Assembly (NCBI GenBank): GCA_050298055.1
Contig: JBNKTL010000015.1
Coordinates: 26,432 to 90,431, forward strand
Source of the DNA: Spirochaetota bacterium
Lineage (GTDB): Bacteria; Spirochaetota; UBA4802; UBA5550
Reading direction: 5' to 3'
DNA: 64,000 nucleotides
This document shows positions 46,378 through 64,000 of this stretch, in pieces. The notes below the pieces were generated by a model. It searched no databases. It had not been told where the DNA came from and saw only the letters and a list, made by a program, of their open reading frames with translations. Position 1 is the first letter of the stretch; each line of letters begins with the position of its first letter. The position numbers and the translations under genes were made by a program.

Positions 46378-49300
46378 ATGAGGAAGAAACTTGTTGTTTT
46401 AATAACATGTGCTGTTTGGGTGATCCTGAATAGTGAGAAGATTTCAGGAGCATCCGGTTTTGAGTTAGTTGTACAGAACGGTCATTCCGGAGGGATTAAA
46501 TCTCTGGCCTATTCAAGAGACGGCAAATTTATTGCTACGGGATCTGCGGACCACAGGATTTTTATCTGGAGCAGTAAGACCGGGAGCCTTATCAGGCGTC
46601 TGTCCGGTCATAAAAATTACGTCACCAGTGTGGACTTTTCTCCCCGGGGCTCTCTGCTTGCAAGCGGATCAATGGATGGTAAAATAATTTTATGGAGTCC
46701 TGACTCTGATGTTCCGGTCAAAACGATTAATACCGGGTTCGGAGCAACAGGAAAGGTGCTCTTCTCCCCTGACGGGAAGTACCTTGCATACGGGAAAAAG
46801 GAGATTTCTCTTCTCGAGAGTAAATCCGGAAAGAAAAAAATGACCATTCAGAACCCGCATCCAGGTTTTATACGGGTGGGGGCTTTTTCTCCCCATGGGA
46901 GATATCTTGCCGCTCTCACAGGAAAAAACAGGATTGATATATTTGATATTGAAAATCAAAAAGAGGTAAAATCACTTTCCGGTCACACAGGCCTGGTCCA
47001 GGCGGTAGCCTGGTCCCCTGACGGAAAAATGCTGGCCAGCGGTTCTCTGGACGGGACTGTGAGAATATGGGACATTAACAGCGGAAGAGGGCGAAAAATT
47101 AATCCGGGGAATGTCTTTGCCCTGGGGTTTTCCCCTGACGGAAAAAAAATTGCCGCGGGTGTCAGCAAAAACTACAGGTACAGCCTCATAGTGATATCGG
47201 CATTAACGGGCCGTATCCTCTACACCAGGGATACGGGAGGAGACCTGGTTACCTCTCTCTCCTTTTCTCCCCATGGGAAACAGATCGCCTCGGGAAGTTC
47301 CGAAAAAAAACTCACGTTGTGGGACAGCGGCAGCGGGCATATCCTGAAAACAATGTCCGGAAGGGCAGACACTGTCTATAATGTGGAATTTACACGGCAG
47401 GGGCGGTACTTCCTGAGCAGCAGCTGGAACAGGATCAGTATCTGGGACAGGGAAACAGCCTGTGAGACAGGTTCTCTTTCGGGTCATCCCAACTTTGGAG
47501 TGGGCTGGTTCGCCCTTTCGGGGAAAGGGGATCTTTTACTCAGCGGAGGCAGGGACAAGATTCTGAGTATTTACGAGGTCCCTTCGGGTAAAGCCCTGAA
47601 GAGAATTAAAATAAATAAAATAATTGCGGGTATATCGGCTTCTCCGGATGGAAGAAATGCCGCGGTCATTCTTGAAGACGGTATGGTTCAGATCTATTCC
47701 CTCCCGGGTGGCAGGAGAGTAAAATTAATAAAGACCGGGATGCCAGCATCCACGGGAGAGGGCTTCAGGCTGGCATTCTCTCCTTTGAAAAGTCTTTTTG
47801 CCGTAGCAACGTCGTATGAACCGGTAAGGATTTTTAACTACCGGTCCGGGAAAATGATCGGTGAATTGAAGACGCCTGATATGGGCACCTGGATAACAAA
47901 GAAATCACGGTTCGGATTAAGCAGGACCATGGAGAGACCTGCCGGTTACAGGGGGCTTTCCCCCGGGGCGGAAAAAATTGTCTTTTCTCCTGACGGGAAG
48001 TATCTTGCCGCGGGGTCCAATGACATGACTGTTAAACTCTGGGATGTTTCAAGCGGGAAACTTGTTCGCGTGATGAGGGGGCACAGGAAAACCGTATCGG
48101 CCCTGGCTTATTCCCCCGCCGGAGACATGATTGCCAGTTCAACATATAACGGCAGAATATTTCTCTGGGACCCCGGATCGGGAAAGCTGCAGGGGAAATT
48201 GAAAGGGCACTCCAGCATGGTCAGAAACCTCTCATTCTCACCGGACGGAAATGCGATAATAAGCGGTTCCAATGACGGAACGGTAAAATACTGGAACAGG
48301 GAGAGTGAAAATGAAGTCTGTACCTTTGCTTCTTTCGGCTCTGGCCGTGACTGGATCGTCTATACGGGGGACGGATATTTTGACTCGTCCCGGAAGGGAG
48401 GTAAATACCTCGGTATCCGGAAAGGCAGGGAAGTTTTCAGTATTGATCAGTTTGCCCTGCAGAGAAATCGTCCGGATATTATTCTCCAGAGGATGGGTAC
48501 GGGGAAAAATGAGATAAGAGAGCATCTCAAACACCGGTATATGCGAAGACTTAAAAGGGCCGGTTTCTCCTCCGGCGCTTCCGGGGAGCTTCACGTCCCC
48601 GGGGCAAAGATTATTTCCGGCAGGAGGGAAGGGAAATTTTTCCACATAAAGTTTTCCCTGGAGGACAGTAAATACGATCTGAAAAGCTACAATGTCTTTG
48701 TAAACAATGTTCCCCTGTTCGGTGCCCGGGGAAAATCTCTGGATGATGACAGTGTAACAGTAAATGAGAAAATTGAGCTTACTCACGGAACAAACAAGAT
48801 TGAGATAAGCTGTATTAATGAAAAGGGTGCCGAGTCCTACAGGGCCATGACCATATCTGAATATGCGGTTAAATCTCCGGGGGATCTCTACTTCCTGGGG
48901 TTCGGAGTGTCAGAGTACAGGAACACTGCCCTTAATCTGAAATATGCCCATAAAGATTCTCTCGATTTAAAAAAGATCTTTGAAAGGATGGCAGGAGGGC
49001 GAAGCTACGGGAAGGTGTATACCAGGGTCTTCACAAATGAACAGGTAACACCGGAGGCAATAAGAAACGCAGGGAGTTTTATTAAAAACGCAAAGCCTGA
49101 TGACACATTCATCCTCTTTATCGCGGGGCATGGTCTCCATGATACCGATCCCGCGGCCACCTATTACTATCTGACTTTTAATGCCGATATTAGTAATCTT
49201 GCGGGAACATGTGCCAGTTTCGAAGAGATTGAAGGTTTGCTCCAGGGCATCGCTCCCCGGAAGAAGCTCTTCCTTATGGACACCTGTGAATCGGGTGAAG

Positions 49301-49710
49301 TTGAAGATAAGATTGAGAAAGCGTATTTCAGTTCCGCGCAAGAAAGGAGGGGCAACGCCAGGGCGGTAAGGGGATTCACGATTAAAGCAAAAAGAACGGT
49401 AAAACCGAGGCCCTGGCTTCTCCAAAGGGAGCGATTTATTTATAATGATCTTTCCCGGCGTTCAGGGGCCATTGTCTTTTCTTCCAGTAAAGGGGGAGAA
49501 TTTTCCTATGAAGGAGGCTCTGTTAATAACGGTTATTTCACCGCGGAGATCATTAACTGTTTAACCGGGAGCAGGAAGAAGATTATATCAATGGAATATC
49601 TTCGCGAGTTTGTCGGGGGGGCGGTTTCAAAGAGATCGGGGGGAATGCAGAACCCCACTGTGGACAGGGACAATCTTTATCTTGATTTTTCCCTCCCCGG
49701 AGTGCGTTGA
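46378..49710 (+). CDS. Exported WD40-repeat protein with C-terminal caspase-like (C14) peptidase
   Basis: Signal peptide, many GH...FSPDG...WD repeats, FIAGHG and MDTCESG catalytic dyad, QNP. Confidence 0.88.
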   Translation: MRKKLVVLITCAVWVILNSEKISGASGFELVVQNGHSGGIKSLAYSRDGKFIATGSADHRIFIWSSKTGSLIRRLSGHKNYVTSVDFSPRGSLLASGSMDGKIILWSPDSDVPVKTINTGFGATGKVLFSPDGKYLAYGKKEISLLESKSGKKKMTIQNPHPGFIRVGAFSPHGRYLAALTGKNRIDIFDIENQKEVKSLSGHTGLVQAVAWSPDGKMLASGSLDGTVRIWDINSGRGRKINPGNVFALGFSPDGKKIAAGVSKNYRYSLIVISALTGRILYTRDTGGDLVTSLSFSPHGKQIASGSSEKKLTLWDSGSGHILKTMSGRADTVYNVEFTRQGRYFLSSSWNRISIWDRETACETGSLSGHPNFGVGWFALSGKGDLLLSGGRDKILSIYEVPSGKALKRIKINKIIAGISASPDGRNAAVILEDGMVQIYSLPGGRRVKLIKTGMPASTGEGFRLAFSPLKSLFAVATSYEPVRIFNYRSGKMIGELKTPDMGTWITKKSRFGLSRTMERPAGYRGLSPGAEKIVFSPDGKYLAAGSNDMTVKLWDVSSGKLVRVMRGHRKTVSALAYSPAGDMIASSTYNGRIFLWDPGSGKLQGKLKGHSSMVRNLSFSPDGNAIISGSNDGTVKYWNRESENEVCTFASFGSGRDWIVYTGDGYFDSSRKGGKYLGIRKGREVFSIDQFALQRNRPDIILQRMGTGKNEIREHLKHRYMRRLKRAGFSSGASGELHVPGAKIISGRREGKFFHIKFSLEDSKYDLKSYNVFVNNVPLFGARGKSLDDDSVTVNEKIELTHGTNKIEISCINEKGAESYRAMTISEYAVKSPGDLYFLGFGVSEYRNTALNLKYAHKDSLDLKKIFERMAGGRSYGKVYTRVFTNEQVTPEAIRNAGSFIKNAKPDDTFILFIAGHGLHDTDPAATYYYLTFNADISNLAGTCASFEEIEGLLQGIAPRKKLFLMDTCESGEVEDKIEKAYFSSAQERRGNARAVRGFTIKAKRTVKPRPWLLQRERFIYNDLSRRSGAIVFSSSKGGEFSYEGGSVNNGYFTAEIINCLTGSRKKIISMEYLREFVGGAVSKRSGGMQNPTVDRDNLYLDFSLPGVR

Positions 49711-51076: not shown

Positions 51077-51664
51077 CTAATGGAGCTGTTCCTCAACCTT
51101 CTTATAGAGGGCATAGAGTTCAAACTTGGAGTGGGTCCCGGTCTTTTTGTAGATATTCAGGATGTGGTTCTTGGCTGTTCCCGATGAGATAGAAAGCCGT
51201 TTGCCGATATCCTTGGTAGGTGTCCCTTTTAACAGGAGTATGAGGATCTCAGTCTCTTTTTTTGTGAGATTAAAATTCTTAATAAATGTTCCCCTTTCAT
51301 CCGAGGTGTTTTCAATTATAGTTTTCGTATAGTGGGCGTCATCTTCCGGTTCCGAGCTGTGAATTTTAAATTCAAACTCTCCGAAGGAAATAGTAAAGTT
51401 ATTTTCAAGCCGGGTCTGTTTATCAATTTTTTCATTATTCACCAGGGTGCCGTTTGTGCTGTCCAGGTCGATAATATATATTTCTCCCTTCTCAACCAGA
51501 AACCTTGCATGTTTTCTGCTGATATTCACCGAATTAAGGCAGAGATGACATCCCGTATTTCTGCCCACGATAAAGGGGAACCTGTCCAGGGGAATAAACC
51601 ATGATCTGCCGTCGGGCATGATTCCCTCAAGATGCCAAAAAAAGTATTCGTCTAATAAACCCAT
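51077..51664 (-). CDS. FHA plus LuxR-HTH transcriptional regulator
   Basis: VGR...ISRKHARF...DLDSTNGTLVN; LTKKETEIL...TKDIGKRLSISSGTAKNHILNIYKK. Confidence 0.88.
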   Translation of the reverse strand: MGLLDEYFFWHLEGIMPDGRSWFIPLDRFPFIVGRNTGCHLCLNSVNISRKHARFLVEKGEIYIIDLDSTNGTLVNNEKIDKQTRLENNFTISFGEFEFKIHSSEPEDDAHYTKTIIENTSDERGTFIKNFNLTKKETEILILLLKGTPTKDIGKRLSISSGTAKNHILNIYKKTGTHSKFELYALYKKVEEQLH

Positions 51665-51843
51665 ACACTACTGATCCCGGAAACCGGGTTATTTTTCAAT
51701 CAATTTTTTCACTTCGGACGTGAATTAAATTCCGGGAAAATTTCCTCTAATCAAAAAAAGTTTTAATGAATCCGGTTCCATAATCGTATTAATAGCGAGG
51801 AATAATCGTAATCCTGATCAAATTTACCTGGAGGTTAAAGATT

Positions 51844-52311
51844 ATGAGGACCACTATCAATATTGACGAGGAACTTCTTGAAAAACTGGAAGAGGCCGCG
51901 GATGCACTCCGTCTCTCTAATAATGAAATGATCTCACTTCTTCTTGCACGGATTATCAGGAAAAAAGAGTTTAAACCCAGGCCTTATGAAAGAGTCACAT
52001 ACCAGAAAAGGAATAAGGACGTTGTCGTCTGGGAAAAAGAGCATATTAACATCGATTCTGTTTTCTATGAGAAGTACCTGGATTTAAGAAGGAATTTTAA
52101 GTTTTCCGTTTCCTGGTTTATTGCTTTTGCTATTAGGAATTATCTTGATGAACTTGTTTATGATCTGAGTAATCCCAGGAATCATGAAAAGATACTGGAT
52201 AACTATGAACGAAATTTTATGTATATTACACGAATGCTGGGTACAGTTCCTCTTTTTATCTCCATTCTTGGGTTTCCGGAACTAAAACACCTGGAAAGAC
52301 TCATGCTCTAA
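51844..52311 (+). CDS. Ribbon-helix-helix-like DNA-binding protein
   Basis: MRTTINIDEELLEKL N-terminus; LDLRRNFKFSVSWFIAFAI; GGAGG RBS. Confidence 0.55.
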   Translation: MRTTINIDEELLEKLEEAADALRLSNNEMISLLLARIIRKKEFKPRPYERVTYQKRNKDVVVWEKEHINIDSVFYEKYLDLRRNFKFSVSWFIAFAIRNYLDELVYDLSNPRNHEKILDNYERNFMYITRMLGTVPLFISILGFPELKHLERLML

Positions 52312-52519
52312 CCAAAATTCCAGCCTAAAAACCAAAAAACTTCCCCAAACACAATACCGGTTTTATCCCGGAATTTCAATCACGTTCCTCACTTCATTTG
52401 TGCCGGACCGGAAATTACCACATGAAAAAAATTAAAACTTTTCCCTCAACCATACCAAATGGCATATTTTCTTAATCCTCAAATTGCATATATTGAGAGC
52501 AATATGCAAGGAGTGAGAT

Positions 52520-53365
52520 ATGGAAAATAAAATGACTATTCCCAAAAACGTAGAGAGCCATCTGGATGGACTTCTTTCGGTGATGGAAAATACCGATGTT
52601 ACCCTGGATGACCTGGAATCCGTCTGGATTGAAAAAGAGCTTCTGTTCGAGAAACAGACAAAGTCCCTGGATATGAGAGAGGTTGAAGAATTTAAAGCTG
52701 ATGACCCCGGGGGAGCAATAGTGCTTACTTTTTCAGGATCCCTTATATCCCTCTACAGCACCCGGGACAAGAGAAGAAGGGTGGAATACGCATCCATTAA
52801 AATGAGAAGCGATGTTCCGGACATTGTGACGTCGGAATGTGCGGAATTAAAGGAAAGGATCACTCTCAATAATCCTGCGGCATTTACCGGGGGAGAAGTA
52901 AAAAAAACATCATCTGTGTATAAAATATTAACCTTCGAGGACGACGTCCCCTCTTCCGAACAGGACAAGAGAATCCGCGAAGCAACGATTTTTCTCACCA
53001 ACGGTTTTGTGCGGATCAACAGGACCTTATCCGTGCTTCCTGAAAATTCACCGGACCAGTTTGATATGAGATCGATGGTTCGATATATAGCGGGAAAGAA
53101 CAATCTCTCCCAGAAGCAGGTGAAGGACCTGCTGGAGGATTACCTCTCGGTTCTGAAAACGGGGCTGATCCTTTCGGGAAGAGTCTCCCTGGGCAGCATA
53201 GGCAACCTCTACCTTAAATTACAGAACGCCAGGGGAGCCAGGGTCATGAAAGTTCCGGGGAAAGAGGAAGAAATTACGGTAGGAGCAAAGCCTCAAATGT
53301 TTGTTCCGAAGATCTCATTCAGCAGCAGGCTGAAAGAGGATGTTTCCGGGATTGAAATCAAATAA
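52520..53365 (+). CDS. Unknown N-terminal domain fused to an HU/IHF-like DNA-binding domain
   Basis: C-terminal MVRYIAGKNNLSQKQVKDLL...VSLGSIGNL...ARGAR...PGKEEEITVGAK...PKISFSSRLKE; N-terminal part paralogous to the next gene. Confidence 0.75.
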   Translation: MENKMTIPKNVESHLDGLLSVMENTDVTLDDLESVWIEKELLFEKQTKSLDMREVEEFKADDPGGAIVLTFSGSLISLYSTRDKRRRVEYASIKMRSDVPDIVTSECAELKERITLNNPAAFTGGEVKKTSSVYKILTFEDDVPSSEQDKRIREATIFLTNGFVRINRTLSVLPENSPDQFDMRSMVRYIAGKNNLSQKQVKDLLEDYLSVLKTGLILSGRVSLGSIGNLYLKLQNARGARVMKVPGKEEEITVGAKPQMFVPKISFSSRLKEDVSGIEIK

Positions 53366-53386
53366 TAATTTATTAAGGAGAAAAAA

Positions 53387-53923
53387 ATGAGTGCATATTT
53401 TGAAATGATCCCTTCCGGGGTCAAAGAACAGATCAGGGAGATCACAAAATCCTCGGGTTTCGATGACAGTGATGAAGCCCTGGAAATGATGGCCGAAGCA
53501 TGGATCGAAAAGCAGAAGATCTTTGCGGAAAAGATACATAAATATGGCATGTCCGAAGCAGCCTCCTTTGAAAGGGAGGATCCCCGGGGAGCGCTTCTCA
53601 TGACCTATTCCGGTTCACTGGTAAATATTGGCCCCGTGATCGACCAGAGGCGCGAATCTGAATACACAAGTATCGGGCTGAGAAGCGACGTACCCGATTC
53701 AGCCCTCAATGATGATACGGTACTGGCCGATGATGCGGAACTGGATGAAATCCTCAGGTTCGAGAAGGGCCCGGTGAGCAGCACGTCACAAATATTCAAG
53801 ATCGCGATTATGGATAATGAAAATCTCACCCCCGAAGAGACACAGGAGACTCTCAAAGAGCTCAGAACATTGATCACCGATGAATTTGTAGATATAAACA
53901 AGACAATTATAAGCAATGGCTGA
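53387..53923 (+). CDS. Stand-alone paralogue of the unknown domain
   Basis: Shares WIEK, DPxGA, T[FY]SGSL, EYxSI..RSDVPD, TS...KI and FV.IN.T with 52520..53365. Confidence 0.75.
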   Translation: MSAYFEMIPSGVKEQIREITKSSGFDDSDEALEMMAEAWIEKQKIFAEKIHKYGMSEAASFEREDPRGALLMTYSGSLVNIGPVIDQRRESEYTSIGLRSDVPDSALNDDTVLADDAELDEILRFEKGPVSSTSQIFKIAIMDNENLTPEETQETLKELRTLITDEFVDINKTIISNG

Positions 53924-53932
53924 TAAAACGGG

Positions 53933-53970
53933 AAACAGTAACTGCTCTTAGAAAAGGGCAGTTGCTGTTT
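53933..53970 (+). terminator. Intra-operon stem-loop (terminator or RNA-stabilising hairpin)
   Basis: AAACAGTAACTGCTCTT-AGAA-AAGGGCAGTTGCTGTTT, 17-bp stem with G:U pairs. Confidence 0.55.
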
Positions 53971-53978
53971 GTAAGACT

Positions 53979-55010
53979 ATGAATAAAGAAATATCCGCCA
54001 TAAAATTAAAAATTGTGAAAAATTATATTAACAGGAAACTCCCTGATAAAAGTGATTTTATGAATCAATTACACGAAGTAAACTGGGTTCTGGAGAATGA
54101 GGGGCCGGATATCCGTCCTTTGGACAGGAACAGGGAAACAGGGGGGCTTATCTATCTGAAGAAAAATATCCCCGTAATAATCGTCCCGGATCTTCACGGA
54201 AGAGGGGACTTCCTCCTTAGCGTCCTGTTCAGTAAACACAATGGGGAAAAAAGTATTCTGGAACATTTACAGGAAGACCGGATGCAGCTGGTTTGCATCG
54301 GTGACGGGATGCACGCCGAATCACGGGAACTGGAGAGATGGAAGCAGGCTTTCGAAGAGTATAAGACCGATTACCTGAACAATGAACGTATGACCGGGGA
54401 AATGACAGAGAGCTTATTTGTCATGCAGACTGTGATACTCCTGAAAACACATTTTCCCGGGAATTTCCATTATCTCAAGGGAAACCATGACAATATTCTC
54501 AATGAAAACGGTAACGGGAACTATCCATTCGCCAAGTTCTGCTATGAAGGAGAGATGGTTACGCATTTTATGAAAAAATTCTATGGAACGGACTTTCTCC
54601 ATGACTATTCCCGGTTCGAAAAAAATCTTCCCCTGTTGTGCATCGGGGAAAATATTTTGATCTCCCACGCCCGGCCCTCCGCGTTTTTTTCAAAAGATGA
54701 GATAAGAGAATACAGAAGCAATCCCGGCGTTGTTTACGGTCTCACATGGACAGATAACGGGGCTTCACGTCCGGGGAGCGTGAAGCGGATGATTGACACT
54801 TTTATTGAAAATGATTCACAGGGGAACCGATACCATTTTGGAGGTCACCGTCCGGTACAGGGACTGTTTCGTCTTTTCAAGGATGAAAATTATGTGCAAT
54901 TCCATAATCCGGATAAATTTCTCATTGTTTTCATAAAACCGGGGAGAGAAATCTCCCTTGACCGGGACGTTGTTGAATTAAAGAATATTCAGGTTATCAT
55001 CGACCAATAA
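53979..55010 (+). CDS. Calcineurin-like metallophosphoesterase (PPP-like)
   Basis: PDLHG, IGDGMH, KGNHD, SHA, LTWTD, GGH. Confidence 0.8.
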   Translation: MNKEISAIKLKIVKNYINRKLPDKSDFMNQLHEVNWVLENEGPDIRPLDRNRETGGLIYLKKNIPVIIVPDLHGRGDFLLSVLFSKHNGEKSILEHLQEDRMQLVCIGDGMHAESRELERWKQAFEEYKTDYLNNERMTGEMTESLFVMQTVILLKTHFPGNFHYLKGNHDNILNENGNGNYPFAKFCYEGEMVTHFMKKFYGTDFLHDYSRFEKNLPLLCIGENILISHARPSAFFSKDEIREYRSNPGVVYGLTWTDNGASRPGSVKRMIDTFIENDSQGNRYHFGGHRPVQGLFRLFKDENYVQFHNPDKFLIVFIKPGREISLDRDVVELKNIQVIIDQ

Positions 55011-55030
55011 TTATTACCGGAGTCCAGAGA

Positions 55031-56953
55031 ATGAACAGTAAGACGAAAAAAATCGGAAAATACCTCATCAGGGGAATGATAGCGGAAGGGGGAATGGGTA
55101 AAATATATAAGGCAAAGCACCCGACGCTGAAAAACGATGTCATTTTGAAAAAGCTTACCCTCAGCGGCAATTCCTCCATCGCCGACAGGTTTAAGAGGGA
55201 AGCACAGCTCATGCTGGATTTCAGCAATGATAATATCGTCAAGGTCTATGATCACTTCAAAGAGGGGAACTCCTATTATATAGTCATGGAGTATATCGAC
55301 GGTATCAGCCTGGAAAAACTTATTGAGAAAAACAGGTTTCTCCCCGATGAGGTGGCCCTTTTGATCTACCGGGAAACATGCAAAGCTCTTCACTACGCCC
55401 ACATGAAGGGCGTTATCCACAGGGATATAAAACCGGACAACGTTCTCATCTCAAAAAAAGGTGAGGTCAAATTAACCGACTTCGGCATCGCTAGAAGTAA
55501 AAACTATGATGAGGAGGGGCTCACCTCCGCGGGCATGACCCTGGGAACACCTACTTTCATGTCACCGGAACAGATAGACGACTCGTCGAAAGTTGATAAA
55601 AGAACCGATATCTATTCCATGGGTGTTATGCTTTATGTCATGGTTACCGGAAAGAGCCCCTTCCCCTCCAACCTCATACCCCAGACCATCAATGCCATAC
55701 AGAAAGGGAAATATGTAAGACCGGAAAAACACAATCCAAAACTCTCTTCTGTCATTAAGCGCCTTATCAGAAAAAGCATGCACTGCAAAATAAACAGAAG
55801 ATACGCTTCGGTTGAACAACTGGTAAAGGTTTCCGGTAAAAAATTAAAAAAATACAGAACCAACGAGGAAATTAACACCGCCATAAAGGAATACGCCTAT
55901 AAAAAGAAATCAGACGGTTCCAGAAGCAGAAAAGGGAATGTCTTAACCGGTATACTCAGAGGCATATCAGCCATCATAACAGCTTCTCTTATAGCCGGGG
56001 GATTGCTGTTTTACCTTTACCTCAACGGATATCATTACGAGTATCTCTATCCCGGGAAGTACGGGGCAATAAAAATTATCCTGCATTCCCGTAAAAGCTA
56101 TAAACAGCCCGAAGACCTTTATAAAAAGATCGCGATTTATAAAAGAGTCAAAGGGAAGTATGGAAAGGAAACATCCGTTGTCACCGGTTTTAAGATTGAA
56201 GACCGGAAAAATTATTTTCAACTCATAAGCGGTAAACTGTATCTTTCAACGGGAAGATACAGAATAAAAGTTTCTTTTGAAAATCAGCTTTTCCAGAGGG
56301 ATTTTTACCTCTCACCGAGGGTCATTCAAAGAGAGAAGAAGGCAACAGCTGAAGCCGCCCTGATTGAAATATTTAACAGGGAGATGACGAAACTTCCCGT
56401 TGAACTGGATTATTCAATCAGGGACAATGACCGGGATATAACAAAAGAGGCAAAGCTTTACATCAGGTACGGCAAAACATGGCTTTTATGGGACGATTAC
56501 AGAAAGAAAGGGATACCCTTCGTTTCGGGGAATTCCTATTACTTTAAGGCCGTATCCGTTGATTATTATCCCGGTTACGAGAGTGTGTCTCTAGAGCCAA
56601 ACCAGACGTATCTCAACCTTCAGCTTGAACTGAACCCGATCCCCGGTTATATTTTTTTAATGTCATCCGCAACAGATTACAGGTTTTCTATAAACAACAG
56701 CGAATACTATCATGATGAGCAAAACGGAGAAGTATTAAAAAAATATTCTCTCCCGTCAAAACGGTTTGCCCGGTATTCTTTTCCTCCCGGGGATTATCTC
56801 TTGCAGGTGGAACTGGATGAGAACACCGGGAAAGCCGTCCGGATAACCGTCACATCAGGGAGCAGGACCATGATAAAGATCCTCGCTGATCATTCAAAAA
56901 AGACTATTTCATTTTCCCGAAAAATCGGAGGGCGTTATGTCAATATTGATTAG
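55031..56953 (+). CDS. Membrane-anchored Hanks-type Ser/Thr protein kinase
   Basis: EGGMGKIY, HRDIKPDN, DFG, GTPTFMSPE, DIYSMG, then a TM helix and an extracytoplasmic domain without PASTA repeats. Confidence 0.93.
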   Translation: MNSKTKKIGKYLIRGMIAEGGMGKIYKAKHPTLKNDVILKKLTLSGNSSIADRFKREAQLMLDFSNDNIVKVYDHFKEGNSYYIVMEYIDGISLEKLIEKNRFLPDEVALLIYRETCKALHYAHMKGVIHRDIKPDNVLISKKGEVKLTDFGIARSKNYDEEGLTSAGMTLGTPTFMSPEQIDDSSKVDKRTDIYSMGVMLYVMVTGKSPFPSNLIPQTINAIQKGKYVRPEKHNPKLSSVIKRLIRKSMHCKINRRYASVEQLVKVSGKKLKKYRTNEEINTAIKEYAYKKKSDGSRSRKGNVLTGILRGISAIITASLIAGGLLFYLYLNGYHYEYLYPGKYGAIKIILHSRKSYKQPEDLYKKIAIYKRVKGKYGKETSVVTGFKIEDRKNYFQLISGKLYLSTGRYRIKVSFENQLFQRDFYLSPRVIQREKKATAEAALIEIFNREMTKLPVELDYSIRDNDRDITKEAKLYIRYGKTWLLWDDYRKKGIPFVSGNSYYFKAVSVDYYPGYESVSLEPNQTYLNLQLELNPIPGYIFLMSSATDYRFSINNSEYYHDEQNGEVLKKYSLPSKRFARYSFPPGDYLLQVELDENTGKAVRITVTSGSRTMIKILADHSKKTISFSRKIGGRYVNID

Positions 56954-57824
56954 AAGAGTTTACCTGGTCCTCATGGGACTCATAGCCGGAACAGCAGTCT
57001 TGCCGGTCATAGAGATCATCCTGAGCAACCAGGAAAAGATGCGGAGCTATTTCCTTCTCAGCGCAATATCCGGCATGATCTTCGGCTCTTTCATCGGCGC
57101 GTTCTTCGGAACCATCAACGGTATTGTATTGAGAAACAGGAACAGGATGCTCAAAGGGGCCGTAAGCGGAATAGCAGGGGGAGCCTTGGCCGGGATTCTC
57201 GGCTTCCTGGTAAGCCAGGGAGTTCTCTTTATCGTCGGACAGTACCTGCTGCAGAACATGAGAAGCTTTCACAGCATCGGCCTGCCGGTATCCCGGGCCC
57301 TGGGTTGGGCGGTCATGGGCGTTTTTATCGGGACCGTGGAAGGGATCAGGGCCAGGTCTGTTACGAAAGTGAAGATCGGGATACTGGGTGGATTTACGGG
57401 AGGTCTGTCGGGAGGCTTTGCACTGGAGTATCTGGTCTATCTCTGGCCCCACATTGTTTTCGCCAGGTTTGCCGGTCTGCTGATCTTCGGGGCAATGCTG
57501 GGATTTTTCTACGGACTCATGGAAAGCAGAATCTCCTTCGGCAGGCTCACTTTATTGAACGGAAAATATAAGGGAAAGGAATTCATCATCAATCAGAAAT
57601 CCCTGGAGATCGGGAAGAAAAAATCAAATGATATCATACTCAGTGATTACAGGCAGATACAGGACAACCACGCCCGGCTGAAAGTCATAAAGGACGAACT
57701 GTTCATCAAACCCGGCGCTCTCAACGGGAAAGTCCTGGTAAACGACATTCAGGTCAACGAACATAAATTGATACGGGATGACGTTATACAGATAGGCAAC
57801 GCGAAATTAATCTACAGGTTTTAA
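56937..57824 (+). CDS. Gly-rich multi-pass membrane protein with C-terminal FHA-like domain
   Basis: About 6 TM helices; GKYKGKEF...IGKK..NDI...NHARL...VND...L..DDVIQIG. Confidence 0.8.
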   Translation: MSILIRRVYLVLMGLIAGTAVLPVIEIILSNQEKMRSYFLLSAISGMIFGSFIGAFFGTINGIVLRNRNRMLKGAVSGIAGGALAGILGFLVSQGVLFIVGQYLLQNMRSFHSIGLPVSRALGWAVMGVFIGTVEGIRARSVTKVKIGILGGFTGGLSGGFALEYLVYLWPHIVFARFAGLLIFGAMLGFFYGLMESRISFGRLTLLNGKYKGKEFIINQKSLEIGKKKSNDIILSDYRQIQDNHARLKVIKDELFIKPGALNGKVLVNDIQVNEHKLIRDDVIQIGNAKLIYRF

Positions 57825-57836
57825 CAGGAGCAAAAA

Positions 57837-59258
57837 ATGAAAAGGATATTTATACTGCTGATACTATTATCCGTCCCCGGTGTTACCCGGGGGAACAGCC
57901 TGACCATTACCCAGGTTGACACATCCCAACTGTTCTTAAAGCAGAAGGTCAACCTCTATGTAAATCTCAGCGATAACACCGGGAACCCCATAAGAAATAT
58001 TACAAAGGAGAATATCCGCCTTTATGAATCGGGGACACAACCCGGGAGCAAAAGAAACGAAATCGAGAATAAGAAAATAACGGTAGAACCCTTTGTGAAC
58101 CGGAACAATGGTATAAACTTTTTCCTGATGATAGACAATTCCGGCAGCATGCGGCAGACAATGGAAGGGAGACAGACAAAAGTTGAGAGCCGGAGAAGGA
58201 TCTACCTGGCAAAAAAAACAGTGGCATCATTTCTTGATTCCATGAACAATCCCAATGACAGGGTCGGCCTGGCATCCTACAATACCAATTATGATTCACT
58301 CTCCTCACCCACTGCCAATATTCAAAGAGTGAAAAACTACCTCTTTGATATCGCAAAACCGGTATCGGAAGAAGGATACACCGAGATATACGGCAGCCTT
58401 TCCCTTGCGGTATACGATTTTAAGAAGATCCGGGGACGAAAGGTTATCATCCTTTTAACCGACGGGGTGAATCAGCCCTATTACAGGCTCACCGGCAAAG
58501 TTCACGACATTTTCGGAAAAAAAACCTTTACATACAAAGAACCGGTCATGCTCTGCAATGAAGAGGGTATCTCCGTATTCCCGGTCTATTTTGGACCCCG
58601 GGGGGGTATGAAGGACCGTCACCTTGACGAGATAGCGAAGGAGACAGGGGGGATGGTGTTCAGCGCCCATAACAAAGGTGAGCTGGCAGACGTTTACACA
58701 AAAATAAAACGGCAGATCCTCAACGAATACCTGGTCTCTTATCCGGCGTCCATGTTCCCCGCAAACAGGAAGACCGTCAGGATGGTCTATGGAAAAGGGC
58801 GGAATAAGGTTTCATCCGAAAGATATTATTTTTCCGGTTCCGTGTTCGGGCTTCCCGTAGATGAGATTGCCTGGTGGCTCGTTTTACCTCTCCTTCTGGG
58901 GCTGGCTCTTTTCGCGGGACTCATCTCCCTGAAGTATGAAAATAAAAATAAAGGGGCCTACCTGGAGTTATTGGAAAGGGGAGTTGCCAGAGTATCCACC
59001 AGAATGTTTTCCATAAACAGCGTCAGGACAGTTATCGGGGGAACAGACAATGCGGATATGACCATTGTCGGCAATAATAAGAATCTTAAAAACAGCCAGG
59101 CTACCATTGTCTTTGATAAGAAGAGTAACCGGTTTACCCTGATCAGCAAAGGAACAACAAAGGTCAATAACAGGAAGATCAGTTCCAAGGTCCTGGAGCC
59201 GGGAGACGTCATCGATGTCTGCGGCACCACGGTGATCTTTGACAACAATAAGATATGA
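57837..59258 (+). CDS. Exported vWA domain, TM helix and FHA-like domain
   Basis: Signal peptide, MIDAS DNSGSM...T...LLTDG, IAKETGG, TM, TKVNN...LEPGDVIDVCGT. Confidence 0.82.
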   Translation: MKRIFILLILLSVPGVTRGNSLTITQVDTSQLFLKQKVNLYVNLSDNTGNPIRNITKENIRLYESGTQPGSKRNEIENKKITVEPFVNRNNGINFFLMIDNSGSMRQTMEGRQTKVESRRRIYLAKKTVASFLDSMNNPNDRVGLASYNTNYDSLSSPTANIQRVKNYLFDIAKPVSEEGYTEIYGSLSLAVYDFKKIRGRKVIILLTDGVNQPYYRLTGKVHDIFGKKTFTYKEPVMLCNEEGISVFPVYFGPRGGMKDRHLDEIAKETGGMVFSAHNKGELADVYTKIKRQILNEYLVSYPASMFPANRKTVRMVYGKGRNKVSSERYYFSGSVFGLPVDEIAWWLVLPLLLGLALFAGLISLKYENKNKGAYLELLERGVARVSTRMFSINSVRTVIGGTDNADMTIVGNNKNLKNSQATIVFDKKSNRFTLISKGTTKVNNRKISSKVLEPGDVIDVCGTTVIFDNNKI

Positions 59259-60132: not shown

Positions 60133-61569
60133 TTAATCTGAACTAACTTGACTTTTTAAAAAATCAACAAGCTTATCGTTTCCCTGGGAAACAGCTAGAT
60201 CCAGGGGAGTTTTCCCACTGTCATCTAAAGCATGCAAGTCAGCCCCTTTTTCAAGTAACAGCCTGCTTGCCTCAACCCGGCCATGCCAGGCAGCATAATG
60301 TAAAGAAGACCAGCCATTTTCTCCCTTTTCATCAATAAGAGCCGGTTTTTTTTCAATTAAATCTTTAATCAACCAGATCATCCCGTACATACAGGCGTTA
60401 AGAAAAACAGTATCACCTCTATTGTTTTTTACACAGGGATCAGCGCCATGTTCATATAAAAACTTAGTAATATCAGGATTTTCCATTGAGTGGAGCAATG
60501 GAGTCCAACCCTCATCATTAGGCTGGTTAACATTCAGCCCCATTTCAACCAGTTTTTTTACCAGATTTAGATTTCCGCTATGCACAGCATTAATTAAAAC
60601 AGTATAACCCTGTTCATCAAGTATGTCCACATCGGCTCCAGCAACAATAAAAGCTTCAACTACTTCCATGTTAGCTTTTCTAAGAGCATAGGCAAATTCA
60701 CTTTGTAGAATTTGTTTATCAATACCGCTCTTTATTATCAGCTTAACAGTATCCGCCATATCATTGAATATAGCCCAATAAAGAGCTGTATACTTATCTT
60801 TTGTAATAATATTAACATCAGCACCCCGGTCTATTAAATATTCTGCCACATTAGAGTGTTTATCTCTGATAGTCTCTGTTAGGGGTGTTCTATTGCTTGA
60901 ATCTTTGGCATCAATGTCACAATTCATTTGAATTAATATTTTTACGATATCAAGATGCCCAAAATGAGCTGCTACATGCAGTAGAGTCTGGTTGTAATAT
61001 GGACAAATCATTGCTTTTGTTTTTTCAGTAAGCAGCTCATTTACTTTTTTAACATCACCTGATTTAACTGCATTATATAGTTCATACTCATTATCTGTTA
61101 ATCCCCTTGCTTTATAAATCAATTCCTTTATTTTATCATCATTAATATTTGCGGCTAAATCAAGATGGTGTGTAACCAAATGTGCTTTAGGGTCTGCCCC
61201 CCTGTTAACTAACAACTCTACTATTGCAAAATTTTCATATTTTACAGCAACACATAAAGGAGTTTGATCTTCATAACCATCTCTCATATCAATTTTAGCA
61301 CCATTATCCAATAAAAGTTCTACAATGTTTAAATGACCATTGTCCACTGCATAGTAAAGAGCCGACATGCCGGCATAATCCTGGTAATTGGGATCAACTC
61401 CCTTTTCCAGGAGCAGCTTTACAATCTCAGAATTGCCTGTTGTGGCCGCTTCAAAAAGCGGTGAATTCCAATATTCATCATTTGATTTTAGTTCAATACC
61501 ACTTTCAATTATTTTCATTACATCTTTAATTTTATTGTTTTTAATAGCTTGATTTAGTTTGTCTAACAT
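60133..61569 (-). CDS. Ankyrin-repeat protein (cassette-like, AT-rich)
   Basis: About 13 TPL/SAL..A...G...IV.LL...GAD repeats. Confidence 0.92.
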   Translation of the reverse strand: MLDKLNQAIKNNKIKDVMKIIESGIELKSNDEYWNSPLFEAATTGNSEIVKLLLEKGVDPNYQDYAGMSALYYAVDNGHLNIVELLLDNGAKIDMRDGYEDQTPLCVAVKYENFAIVELLVNRGADPKAHLVTHHLDLAANINDDKIKELIYKARGLTDNEYELYNAVKSGDVKKVNELLTEKTKAMICPYYNQTLLHVAAHFGHLDIVKILIQMNCDIDAKDSSNRTPLTETIRDKHSNVAEYLIDRGADVNIITKDKYTALYWAIFNDMADTVKLIIKSGIDKQILQSEFAYALRKANMEVVEAFIVAGADVDILDEQGYTVLINAVHSGNLNLVKKLVEMGLNVNQPNDEGWTPLLHSMENPDITKFLYEHGADPCVKNNRGDTVFLNACMYGMIWLIKDLIEKKPALIDEKGENGWSSLHYAAWHGRVEASRLLLEKGADLHALDDSGKTPLDLAVSQGNDKLVDFLKSQVSSD

Positions 61570-61598
61570 AGTTAAAATTAATCCTTAGTCATTTATCA

Positions 61599-61772
61599 TA
61601 ATAACGTTAAAGCTTAACCGACGTTGCCATGATTGCGTAATGTATTTAAAAGAGTTGAATTTATTTTTGCAACTAAATTTTTAGAAAGCAACAATGGGCA
61701 ATGTGCCGAAGGCCGAGCACCGCAGGCGCGGCCTTTTGCGCCGAGGAGCGGAGCGGTTAAGCTTAGTTATTT
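61599..61772 (-). mobile_element. attC-like integron cassette recombination site
   Basis: Minus strand AAATAAC-T-AAGCTTAACCG ... CGGTTAAGCTT-TAAC-GTTATTA, with internal TCGGCCTTCGGCACATT. Confidence 0.65.
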
Positions 61773-61840
61773 GCAGTGGGCGCAAACAGCAATAGTATTT
61801 TTGTAATTTTGACATGGACGTCAAAATTATTAGAGTTAAT

Positions 61841-62743
61841 CTATTCTGCATACCCAAATATACATTTCTTTATTATTCCAATTTTGCCTTTATACCAATA
61901 AACTTGTTGTTCATAAGCATTGTAATCTTTGTTTTTGGGCAAATTAGGGCAATCTTTTGCAACTCTATCATACTGTTGAAAAATAAATTTATCATCATGC
62001 CATTTATTCATATATTTATTACTTTTTATTAAATAATGTGTTTCATATACGGTTTTTCTTTTAATTCCATCAATAATTTCTAAGCTCCTGGTAGCTCCAG
62101 TACCATCATCAATAGCAATGTATCGCTTTGATTTCGAGACATCAATAATACTTGGACTATATGCTTTTTTTGGCAAATTTAAAAAAGTTTTATTATAAAA
62201 ATCAAAAATACCAGCAAAGAATAATTCTCCAATATTAAGTTTAATAGATATTAAAAAATACCTTTTATTAAATGTATTTGAAAAATTTTTAATAGTATAA
62301 CTGAAGTCTTTAAATTTTAAATTATCAACATGTGTATAATCATTAAAGCTTTCTGGATTAAACTTTTTAGAGAAATATATCTTATCGTTAAGAATGGATT
62401 TTATCAATAATTGATTTTTTTGAAATTTAATTATAAAACCATCTTCTTTATTTAGTATGGAATCACCTTTACTTATTAGTTTAATGTAATCTTTATAAAT
62501 AAATCCTTCTTTTTTCTTATGACTTATTTTATACCATTCTTTAAATTTATTCTGCGTTTCAATTTTTTTAATAACTGACACTTTATCATATTTATTTAAT
62601 TGCAAGACAACTTTACTTTCTGTATTTGGTTTGTTTCTGATATTTACTAGATCTCCAATAATAACACCTTGGTCATTTTTTCTTTTACAACCAAAACTAT
62701 AATAAATCATAAAACAGATTGATATAATTTTTATTACTTTCAC
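61841..62743 (-). CDS. SH3b-domain lipoprotein (cassette-like, very AT-rich)
   Basis: Lipobox-like SFGC; VNIRNKPNTESKVV...EWYKI...EGFIYKDYI. Confidence 0.82.
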   Translation of the reverse strand: MKVIKIISICFMIYYSFGCKRKNDQGVIIGDLVNIRNKPNTESKVVLQLNKYDKVSVIKKIETQNKFKEWYKISHKKKEGFIYKDYIKLISKGDSILNKEDGFIIKFQKNQLLIKSILNDKIYFSKKFNPESFNDYTHVDNLKFKDFSYTIKNFSNTFNKRYFLISIKLNIGELFFAGIFDFYNKTFLNLPKKAYSPSIIDVSKSKRYIAIDDGTGATRSLEIIDGIKRKTVYETHYLIKSNKYMNKWHDDKFIFQQYDRVAKDCPNLPKNKDYNAYEQQVYWYKGKIGIIKKCIFGYAE

Positions 62744-62802
62744 TTAAATTGTCTCCAGTATAATATAAAAATGGCGCATGGATGCGCCAAATAGAGTTTT
62801 GC

Positions 62803-63450
62803 GGTACAACCCGAAGACATCGGTAACGAAAATGTCTCGACACATCGGTAACACTCTATAGAGCTTTTCGTACCTTTATAGAATCTTCTTCAAAAATAAT
62901 CAAGCCAGTTATTTCATCAAGAACACCAATAAGAAAATCGTCAAACCATATTTTAATACGGCTATGCTGTTCTTTGATGGCAACATTGTATCCGGCGAAC
63001 GGATTTCCGACAAAGATTCTTTTTCCCTTGTAGTTGCAAAAACCACGATCATTTACCATACGACTTATAAATCCTCTCCCGTAAACGATCAAGACATCTT
63101 CTGGTTCATATTTTCTTTCAGATTTTGTATATAATTCAGCAGGGGTTTTCATGCCTAAGGCTTGGTGAGGTCTGATAGTATTAAATACCTCGCACCATTG
63201 ATCGAATACTTTTTGGTGTTCGTTTAAATTGCCATCTATTTGACCTTCCAGTTCCTGTGTCATGTCCCGGTGCATTCGTTCATGCCCACCGTTTTGATAA
63301 GGGCATCCAGGATCTATTCTATCAAGTTTAATACCAAGAGACATCCACCAGACTGAGAGTTTGCTTAAACCAAGGGCATTAAATGAACTGGCAAAGGGAG
63401 GCCCATTATCTGATCGAATGATTTCAGGGAGCCCATATTGGGTAAAAATG
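62803..63450 (-). mobile_element. IS481-family element, 3' part (transposase interrupted by IS21)
   Basis: Frame continues upstream of the ORF call as YGLPEIIRSDNGPPFAS...LSVWWMSLGI...PYQNGGHERMHR. Terminus has repeated ACATCGGTAAC at ~62817 and ~62842. Confidence 0.85.
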
Positions 63451-64000
63451 TGTCAATTTTCACGATATTGACCCCCTCGTAATCGCAATGCTGACCCCCT
63501 GAAAATCGGTATACTGACCCCTCTTAAAAATAAATAACGGCCTCAGAATGGAAACTGGAGGCTGTGAGAATTGGACAAGAGGACGAAAGACATGTATTCA
63601 ATACAGGACATAATAGAAGACCTGCTAAACAAAAAGAAGATAAAAGAGATAGCGAGAGTAAGAAAAGTATCCAAGAATACTGTAAAGAAATACCGTAAAA
63701 TACTTGAAGGAATCCTTGAAAAGAAACCTGAATATCATGGTTCTTTGGATAACATTTTGGATGAAATCAGGAAACAAAGGCAAGAAGAAAAGTATTCAGA
63801 AAATTTTGGGTGGCTCAAGAAAAACAATGAACTGGTAGAAAAGTTATCCCAGGGTTGTGATAACTATGTCCGGCTTGTTGAGGTATTAAACGAGAAGGGC
63901 TTCAAAGGGAGTTATTCATCTCTGTTAAGGTATATTGAAAAAAACAGAGTTAATTCAGAAAACCCGATAGTCAGAATAGAGACCCGCCCCGGGGAAATAG
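63451..64000 (+). mobile_element. IS21-family element, left end
   Basis: TGTCAA terminus, three TGACCCC repeats, istA start. Confidence 0.85.
63571..64000 (+). CDS. istA: IS21 transposase IstA (partial)
   Basis: GGAGG RBS and TTG; KEIARVRKVSKNTVKKYR HTH; GFKGSYSSLLRY...VRIETRPGE; runs off window. Confidence 0.85.
   Translation, partial: MDKRTKDMYSIQDIIEDLLNKKKIKEIARVRKVSKNTVKKYRKILEGILEKKPEYHGSLDNILDEIRKQRQEEKYSENFGWLKKNNELVEKLSQGCDNYVRLVEVLNEKGFKGSYSSLLRYIEKNRVNSENPIVRIETRPGEI

Follow-up and report, generated by a model that had tools for sequence, protein, structure and literature searches.

A 64,000-nucleotide stretch of a Spirochaetota bacterium genome (assembly GCA_050298055.1, contig JBNKTL010000015.1, positions 26,432 to 90,431; hereafter the window) carries six genes, at window positions 52520-59258, that form a conserved system of spirochaetes. 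The products are two paralogues of an uncatalogued domain (domain X), one of them fused to an HU domain; a PPP-like metallophosphoesterase; a receptor-type Hanks kinase; and two membrane proteins with FHA-like tails. We consider it somewhat probable that the genes constitute a chromosomal Ser/Thr signalling system that leads from the envelope to the cytoplasm and DNA, and that does not serve in defence. The original prediction, a note made earlier from the DNA letters, had described six tightly spaced, co-directional genes of a phospho-signalling system; six open reading frames of 281, 178, 343, 640, 295 and 473 aa indeed lie here in one direction, with successive gaps of 21, 55, 20, −17 and 12 bp. 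We named them as listed below, and X, PPP, KIN, TMFHA and VWA are referred to as the core genes.

52520-53365, + strand: X-HU (281 aa), domain X (residues ~1-172) followed by an HU/IHF domain (185-275; PF00216 above its cut-off).
53387-53923, + strand: X (178 aa), stand-alone domain X, first gene of the core operon and candidate kinase substrate at Thr173 (no Pfam match; AlphaFold2 model).
53979-55010, + strand: PPP (343 aa), PPP-like metallophosphoesterase with a variant motif II and invariant metal-site motifs, probably the cognate protein phosphatase.
55031-56953, + strand: KIN (640 aa), receptor-type Hanks RD Ser/Thr kinase with a kinase domain (Pkinase, E = 1.4e-54), one transmembrane segment and an extracytoplasmic region of ~300 aa.
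56937-57824, + strand: TMFHA (295 aa), membrane domain rich in glycine, with about six helices, and a probable cytoplasmic pseudo-FHA domain (AlphaFold2, hydropathy and fold comparison).
57837-59258, + strand: VWA (473 aa), signal-like N-terminus, exported vWA domain (VWA, E = 8.3e-13) with an intact adhesion site that depends on metal ions (MIDAS), one transmembrane segment and a degenerate FHA-like tail.

A scan of GTDB with the single X protein gave no match; an alignment-based scan with the X profile succeeded, and we kept the best 80 of 276 related stretches. Within these 80 loci, KIN was present in 78, PPP in 73, TMFHA in 68, VWA in 66 and X-HU in 42. When only the 63 loci whose sequence extends ≥6.2 kb downstream of X were considered (hereafter roomy loci), X, KIN, TMFHA and VWA occurred together in 62, and all five core genes occurred in the order of the window (X-PPP-KIN-TMFHA-VWA) in 54, which indicates more than a chance association. 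The nine exceptions comprise five loci without PPP, three in which PPP lies behind VWA on the opposite strand and one that lacks both membrane genes. The composition, order and co-inheritance of the genes are thus observed directly, as are the intact motifs and the TMFHA-VWA fusion described below, and the co-occurrence in other genomes expected under the original prediction was borne out. Taxon labels were spirochaete for 76 of the 80 loci, "uncultured bacterium" for three and Neomarinimicrobiota for one; on a quick tree, the window clusters on a long branch with two Leptospiria-labelled rows. Beyond the core families, the largest cluster of recurring neighbours (sigma-54-activator-like) appeared in 13 of the 80 loci, and no secretion, pilus, ATPase, outer-membrane, cyclase, PP2C, defence or mobility gene recurred.

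We also searched an even sample of the phylum, 301 Spirochaetota genomes, for the single genes. X was found in 47 genomes, PPP in 68, VWA in 41 and TMFHA in the same 41 as VWA plus one weak match, so that the full system occurs in about one in seven sampled genomes (41/301). All 41 genomes with VWA and TMFHA also have X, and 38 of them have PPP; PPP was strongly matched in 28 further genomes without VWA. As related genomes are not independent, P values were left aside. Some families show high retention (12/14, 4/4 and 3/3 genomes), and in other families the system was found in 0/53 and 0/37 of the searched genomes. Cultured species encode homologues of single components (X in Sediminispirochaeta smaragdinae, TMFHA in Spirochaeta africana), and the system is therefore amenable to testing.

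In KIN (185.7 bits against Pkinase), residues K40 and E57, the HRD motif (HRD-x-K-P-x-N), N137, DFG and PE are invariant in 60/60 family members, the window protein included, and a single transmembrane segment lies near residues 304-330; the protein is accordingly the intact, membrane-spanning RD kinase of the original prediction. Mean identity is 25% in the ectodomain vs 58% in the kinase domain. With PEGA detected in 5/60 and CarboxypepD_reg in 4/60 family members, the ectodomain probably consists of PEGA/carboxypeptidase-regulatory-like beta-sandwiches; its profile gave only weak matches to PDB structures (E 0.019 and up). Four kinase matches were found in the genome, among which KIN is the sole short receptor-type kinase; the others are frames of 1871 aa and 2135 aa and a contig-end fragment.

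By its motifs, PPP is a member of the calcineurin-like metallophosphoesterase superfamily. The metal-site motifs (D-x-H, G-D, G-N-H, H and G-H) are all present, and the residues concerned (D71/H73, G108/D109, G168-N169-H170, H230 and G289-H290-R291) are invariant in 65/65 family members. Metallophos was detected in 44 of the 65 (best E 1.8e-6), and the window protein itself had no relevant Pfam match; the best PDB matches, BSU1 and PP1, are weak and local (E 0.0025 and up). We then considered 20 PPP loci outside the full operon, from 19 of the 28 genomes with strong PPP and without VWA and from one genome with VWA elsewhere. A KIN orthologue adjoins PPP in 17 of these 20 loci, and nine read small FHA-PPP-KIN. 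Because PPP adjoins KIN in 17/20 loci without the full operon, we regard the kinase-phosphatase pair as the core. Based on this adjacency and the weak PP1/BSU1 matches, PPP is probably the cognate protein phosphatase, with predicted activity on phosphoserine and phosphothreonine.

AlphaFold2 predicted six long helices over residues 3-199 of TMFHA, with a predicted local distance difference test (pLDDT) score of 90.8 for the model. The tail adopts an FHA fold (Z 18.2 and root-mean-square deviation [rmsd] 1.3 over 97 residues vs GarA). FHA matches filled the lists of the fold searches, which barely probed the membrane domain; in the ESM Atlas, the membrane part gave only leads below 0.9, in Planctomycetota and Chloroflexota clusters. 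In VWA, the MIDAS is formed by a DNSGS motif with T182 and D209, the latter two assigned by position and not by structure, and D100, S102, S104, T182 and D209 are invariant in 60/60 family members. The signal-like N-terminus and the transmembrane segment after the vWA domain agree with the exported, intact-MIDAS vWA protein that had been predicted. At the sequence level, the VWA tail matches the FhaA FHA domain by profile (E 2.6e-5). In 4/80 loci, TMFHA and VWA are fused into one protein of 761-768 aa. Because they share the same hosts, occur as fusions and have distances that correlate more strongly than those of any other gene pair (0.85 over 45 loci), we propose that TMFHA and VWA act as a unit.

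According to the available part of one recent report, the canonical phosphothreonine-binding FHA motifs are G-R, S-x-x-H and N-G (10.64898/2026.01.23.701218). Among 63 TMFHA tails, the pocket Arg is present in nine, the Ser in nine and both in three, and the His is kept in 56; the window protein keeps His and N-G, with Lys and Gln in place of Arg and Ser. Among 60 VWA tails, the Arg is present in one and S-x-x-H in none. Since they lack the G-R and S-x-x-H phosphothreonine motifs, the two tails are unlikely to be readers, and they are probably pseudo-FHA domains that serve as scaffolds. The earlier description of two membrane proteins with FHA-like tails therefore stands with respect to fold and profile, and not with respect to phosphothreonine binding.

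X is a paralogue of the N-terminal part of X-HU (32% identity over 167 aa, E 6e-28), and the HU domain of X-HU scores 34 bits against the PF00216 cut-off of 22.4, as expected from the prediction of two related proteins of an unnamed domain, one HU-fused. The X protein had no Pfam match and a single trivial NCBIfam match far under the cut-off; its named homologues are each a "hypothetical protein" of Spirochaetota, and the X profile matches 203 clusters (50% identity) at E ≤ 0.001. The AlphaFold2 model (pLDDT 89.4) shows a beta core with a long helical hairpin alongside. Foldseek comparison with PDB and a search of a viral structure library each returned no match at E ≤ 0.001, and the ESM Atlas gave no usable match; VIA-align, run against 48,161 chains, reached Z 5.0 at best (rmsd 4.0, 90 aligned), and helical bundles came next. 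This lack of a fold match does not establish a new fold. One 701-aa protein (P0282, on five contigs, single cluster) joins a vWA-transmembrane part to X and another helical domain instead of an FHA tail; X is thereby assigned to the cytoplasmic face of the vWA receptor. In a third form (P0270, P0276, P0278, P0282, P0285, P0293, P0316, P0322 and P0325), X is fused to a different C-terminal domain of ~120 aa without a Pfam match. At one locus, L116:8104-10026 (+), a divergent stand-alone X is directly followed by two HU-like genes, and X thus adjoins HU outside the operon.

The X-HU family (292 homologues) has a profile that matches HU and IHF structures, and its arm proline, P246, is invariant in 103/103 sequences; DNA binding and bending are predicted from the HU/IHF domain. 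In the 80 loci, X-HU is divergent and upstream in 35, downstream in seven and missing in 38. It is co-directional and upstream just in the window and in L152/L153, which are probably one organism assembled twice. The HU-fused X of the original prediction is thus found in 42/80 loci as a loosely linked gene and not as a fixed operon member. The genome also encodes an ordinary HU, and X-HU is therefore an additional HU; X-HU as the sole HU of the genome was considered and rejected, as the ordinary HU was found by Pfam search and missed by a local profile.

Three further features lie upstream of X-HU.

51077-51664, − strand: FHA-LuxR (195 aa), probable phosphothreonine reader and transcription output (Pfam FHA, E = 1.6e-19; GerE, E = 3.2e-13).
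51715-52384, + strand: dispersed repeat of ~670 bp with an RHH-domain open reading frame (51844-52311; RHH_1 match), outside the system.
52450-52474, + strand: candidate promoter/operator element ~70 bp 5' of X-HU, with a putative function and recurring in other loci.

FHA-LuxR consists of a canonical FHA domain, with all three motifs present (G-R, S-R-K-H and N-G), fused to a LuxR/GerE helix-turn-helix. An orthologue with 66% identity lies directly divergent from X-HU in L152/L153; here, the RHH cassette lies between the two genes. The full-length fusion was not found with the window query in 60 related genomes. We regard FHA-LuxR as a probable seventh member of the system, a predicted phosphothreonine reader and a second DNA-binding output in this lineage; the six-gene boundary drawn originally was right about its six genes and omitted this one. 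A small FHA gene lies ≤200 bp from a core gene in 28/80 GTDB loci, and 27/80 metagenome loci contain one. The canonical pattern (G-R, S-x-x-H, and N-G or N-K, as one subtype has N-K for N-G) fits 26 of the 28 and 25 of the 27 proteins, respectively. K-T-I-[IM] recurs in the FHA-LuxR linker, and many small FHA proteins carry D/E-T-[IV] at the N-terminus; GarA and OdhI also carry an N-terminal acidic-Thr motif. We infer that T-I-I-type threonines in the X tail, the FHA-LuxR linker and the small FHA N-terminus are candidate kinase sites. One clade (L083, L090, L095 and L100) combines Asp at the T173 position of X with a small FHA subtype that is acidic in its tail and lacks the Thr motif at the N-terminus. 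In two other loci (L126:8487-8927 and L127:2087-2518, − strand), the small FHA protein beside X has an N-terminal CxxC...CxxC zinc-ribbon, an architecture that we take to be that of archaeal ArnA.

Activities, contacts, phosphosites, signal and DNA targets in the mechanism that we propose are all predictions from sequence. Its core would be the single-pass Hanks kinase and the cognate PPP-like phosphatase. VWA and TMFHA would form a co-receptor whose exported MIDAS binds a ligand in the periplasm or envelope, and this complex would modulate the receptor kinase via its beta-sandwich ectodomain; the pseudo-FHA tails may serve as docks for the kinase or X and would not read phosphothreonine. The kinase would phosphorylate T-I-I-type threonines in the X tail, at the N-terminus of some small FHA proteins and possibly in the FHA-LuxR linker, a canonical FHA protein would read the mark and PPP would erase it. 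DNA output would occur via X-HU and, in this lineage, also via FHA-LuxR.

Several observations weigh against this envelope-to-DNA signalling mechanism. PPP is missing from five and relocated in three of the 63 roomy loci. Its motif II reads G-D-[GY]-[FV]-H-[AS]-E, with H112 and E114 in 65/65 family members, and is non-canonical; in the PPP family, to which PP2A belongs, motif II is G-D-x-x-D-R-G. The calcineurin-like eraser of the original prediction thus keeps its metal site and loses its PPP signature at this motif. The X protein ends in N-K-T-I-I, and T173 is invariant in 90/90 sequences of alignment A1 and present in 72/80 GTDB loci (68 by pattern, four by eye; unreadable in one), figures that are inflated because one scan pattern included the T173 motif. 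T173 is replaced by Asp in four and by Asn in three of the 80 loci, and distant X proteins frequently lack the threonine. Distance correlations of X with the other genes reach just 0.41-0.54, and in some genomes a divergent X, or an X joined to a further helical domain, lies well away from the operon genes. At N245, T248 and G249, though not at the proline, the HU arm of the window protein differs from the family consensus. X-HU is missing from 38/80 loci and some operon-bearing genomes have just one X match, so that the DNA output is not obligatory. Within the family of the host, the system is patchy (5/26 genomes).

A more specific form of the signalling mechanism, which we hold only tentatively and think rather doubtful, treats X as a new kind of phospho-switch. 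X and X-HU would form a hetero-oligomer on the pseudo-FHA tails of the VWA/TMFHA co-receptor, and phosphorylation of the X tail by KIN, reversed by a new PPP subfamily, would release or remodel a dedicated DNA-bending HU; the result would be a direct pathway in spirochaetes from an integrin-like ligand through a receptor kinase to the nucleoid.

Alternatively, the genes may build a membrane assembly platform that is gated by the kinase and serves adhesion, secretion or cell shape. In it the pseudo-FHA scaffold would polymerise, vWA would be a subunit of adhesin-like or assembly type, and X-HU would do no more than regulate or tether it; this seems unlikely to us. The FHA-like domains of SctD/YscD and EssC polymerise as scaffolds, and assembly of the type VI secretion system is switched by threonine phosphorylation. 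The best-scoring family for TMFHA is Yop-YscD_cpl (2.8e-13), both membrane FHA tails lack the phosphothreonine motifs, the TMFHA membrane domain has many invariant glycines, and the coupling of TMFHA to VWA is tight, all of which favour a platform. However, no secretion, pilus, ATPase or outer-membrane neighbour recurs in the 80 loci, and the kinase-phosphatase pair persists without the membrane genes.

Less likely again is that PPP acts on a nucleotide or small phosphoester with X as its ligand-binding partner, in a mix of protein phosphorylation and second-messenger signalling. Such a role would suit the G-D-x-x-H-x-E motif with its invariant H112 and E114, the weak and local PP1/BSU1 similarity, the many invariant S/T/R/K residues of X that are potential phosphate ligands, and the retention of PPP by five of the six genomes with X and without VWA. 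Yet PPP tracks the kinase (17/20) and the canonical FHA gene (9/20), nearly all PDB matches are protein phosphatases, and no cyclase recurs as a neighbour.

The least probable reading, an anti-phage or conflict system in which vWA would detect a breach of the envelope, the kinase would set off dormancy and X-HU would act on DNA, draws on the patchy distribution in the host's family (5/26) and one genus (3/11), on calcineurin-like and FHA domains in described conflict systems (PMC7159879, available part) and on HU clades tied to conflicts (PMC5499826, available part), but PADLOC (2023 library) matched 0/5 non-kinase operon proteins at E 0.01 and the kinase only through its generic kinase domain, no defence or mobility neighbour recurs, no variable effector slot is seen, no X relative was found in the viral contigs, plasmids or phages searched, whole families retain the system, and each of two class labels needs a single tree change, with just two Leptospiria rows and 15 unlabelled. 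The original prediction thus gained a conserved multi-gene system for its phospho-signalling interpretation, with a predicted DNA output, and its anti-phage role found no support in the PADLOC, neighbour, or viral, phage and plasmid searches.

No operon of the same composition, which would have counted against the original prediction, came up in the literature searched, and the search, which left most subscription literature outside its coverage, found no description of the locus. The locus is not described in the available parts of PMC5499826, PMC7159879 or 10.64898/2026.10.19.760177. Apparently unpublished, it is a variant of kinase/phosphatase/FHA/vWA signalling that includes pseudo-FHA membrane partners, an HU fusion and an uncatalogued domain.

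As far as the accessible text of its report goes, the Deinococcus radiodurans operon DRA0331-DRA0334 encodes vWA, Ser/Thr kinase and FHA proteins and a PP2C with KI-FHA (10.64898/2026.01.23.701218). It resembles the locus in combining vWA, a membrane Ser/Thr kinase, a canonical FHA domain and a phosphatase, and a degenerate FHA domain docks kinases in Deinococcus. The Deinococcus phosphatase is a PP2C, whereas that of the locus is PPP-like; the accessible text mentions no domain X, HU fusion or six-transmembrane pseudo-FHA protein, and the vWA protein here is membrane-anchored with an FHA-like tail. In the Sulfolobus Arn network, the available excerpts describe control of archaellum expression by FHA (ArnA), vWA (ArnB), kinase (ArnC) and PP2A (PMC7472852) and phosphorylation of ArnB on C-terminal threonines (PMC6509490). 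The network shares with the locus an FHA protein, an intact-MIDAS vWA, a Hanks kinase and a PPP-family phosphatase, so that a PPP-like enzyme in place of PP2C, which the original prediction had thought unusual, has an archaeal precedent, although there is indeed no PP2C family match among the window genes. As described in those excerpts, however, the Arn proteins are archaeal and soluble and the FHA protein reads the vWA protein; here the vWA protein is exported, and therefore cannot be the FHA ligand, and there are an extra membrane layer, X and X-HU.

The actinobacterial GlnH-GlnX-PknG-OdhI/GarA pathway comprises, in the part of the source available, an extracytoplasmic binding protein, a polytopic membrane transducer, a kinase and a small FHA protein (PMC9769921). 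It shares the trans-envelope logic, and some small FHA proteins here have an N-terminal acidic-Thr motif like that of GarA/OdhI. Within what the source covers, neither sensor nor transducer showed homology; KIN carries a transmembrane segment and an ectodomain of its own, and its apparent outputs are DNA-binding proteins, in contrast to 2-oxoglutarate dehydrogenase. A further comparison is E. coli yegL-pphC-yegI, which by name we take to be the TerY-P triad. These adjacent genes encode vWA, PP2C and kinase proteins (10.1101/819920, available part). That source, to the extent available, describes a PP2C and an atypical two-pass kinase without a sensor domain, and no FHA, X or HU. The HU/IHF superfamily includes the fusions HU-HIG and HU-CCDC81 (PMC5499826, available part), and the C-terminal domain of X-HU is, as in that superfamily, a DNABII domain with the arm proline; the HU-HIG and HU-CCDC81 profiles score under the cut-off on X-HU. 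The main text of PMC5499826, as available, holds no kinase, FHA, vWA or phosphatase, and its supplement lists HU architectures. The locus is predicted to operate along the lines of the kinase systems compared here but, because PP2C is absent and vWA is exported, belongs to none of them.

Clusters of kinase, phosphatase, FHA and vWA genes are already known as a general kind, which limits the surprise, and to our knowledge Ser/Thr signalling in spirochaetes has been little studied. Among the components of the system are a PPP-like subfamily whose active-site motif is altered, pseudo-FHA proteins of the membrane and a domain that is uncatalogued. Should X-HU be the output, envelope sensing would be tied to DNA architecture by a dedicated, co-inherited link. 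New from this window are the co-directional arrangement and the FHA-LuxR fusion as a putative second DNA-binding output.

At ≤5 mismatches, L152/L153 and L063 have the 25-bp element of 52450-52474 at an equal distance, and in the genome the element is single-copy at ≤4 mismatches. A promoter/terminator scan found nothing informative at either operon end. Across loci, a 36-bp motif 5' of X (log-likelihood 252 vs 105-111 shuffled; of 41 divergent intergenic regions left after de-duplication, 32 reach ≥10 bits) reads as a putative extended −10 promoter with a weak upstream box; it was not found 5' of the window genes (1.2 bits). A 24-bp motif 5' of X from the first motif search was rejected, as the best of its sites lie, judged by position, at the beginning of the coding sequence of divergent X-HU.

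The RHH_1 family has 21 protein copies in the genome, the window copy included, and the cassette recurs with 74-85% DNA identity over ~665 bp at six other genome positions; it is not at the equivalent spot in L152. The cassette family looks like a dispersed selfish element or an expanded regulator, and no transposase was seen in the cassette. DNA contigs of two runs from one study (one run possibly the source) span 30/30 bins, with a break inside the RHH repeat, and no RNA dataset was among those listed as holding the locus. Window positions 46378-49710 (+) encode a 1110-aa WD40 protein followed by a GH114 protein; the C-terminal part of the WD40 protein looks caspase-like, judged by eye from H-G and D-T-C motifs, with no caspase match among the 25 listed Pfam rows. 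The stretch at 60133-63999 has a G+C content of 33-36%, encodes an ankyrin-repeat protein, an SH3b protein and two transposase-fragment-like open reading frames (by eye), and is likely an insertion unrelated to the operon. Elsewhere in the same genome, at G000:C1:174724-176196 (+), lies an unrelated second vWA-like/transmembrane/FHA protein with a more canonical FHA domain (G-R, S-x-x-H and N-G).

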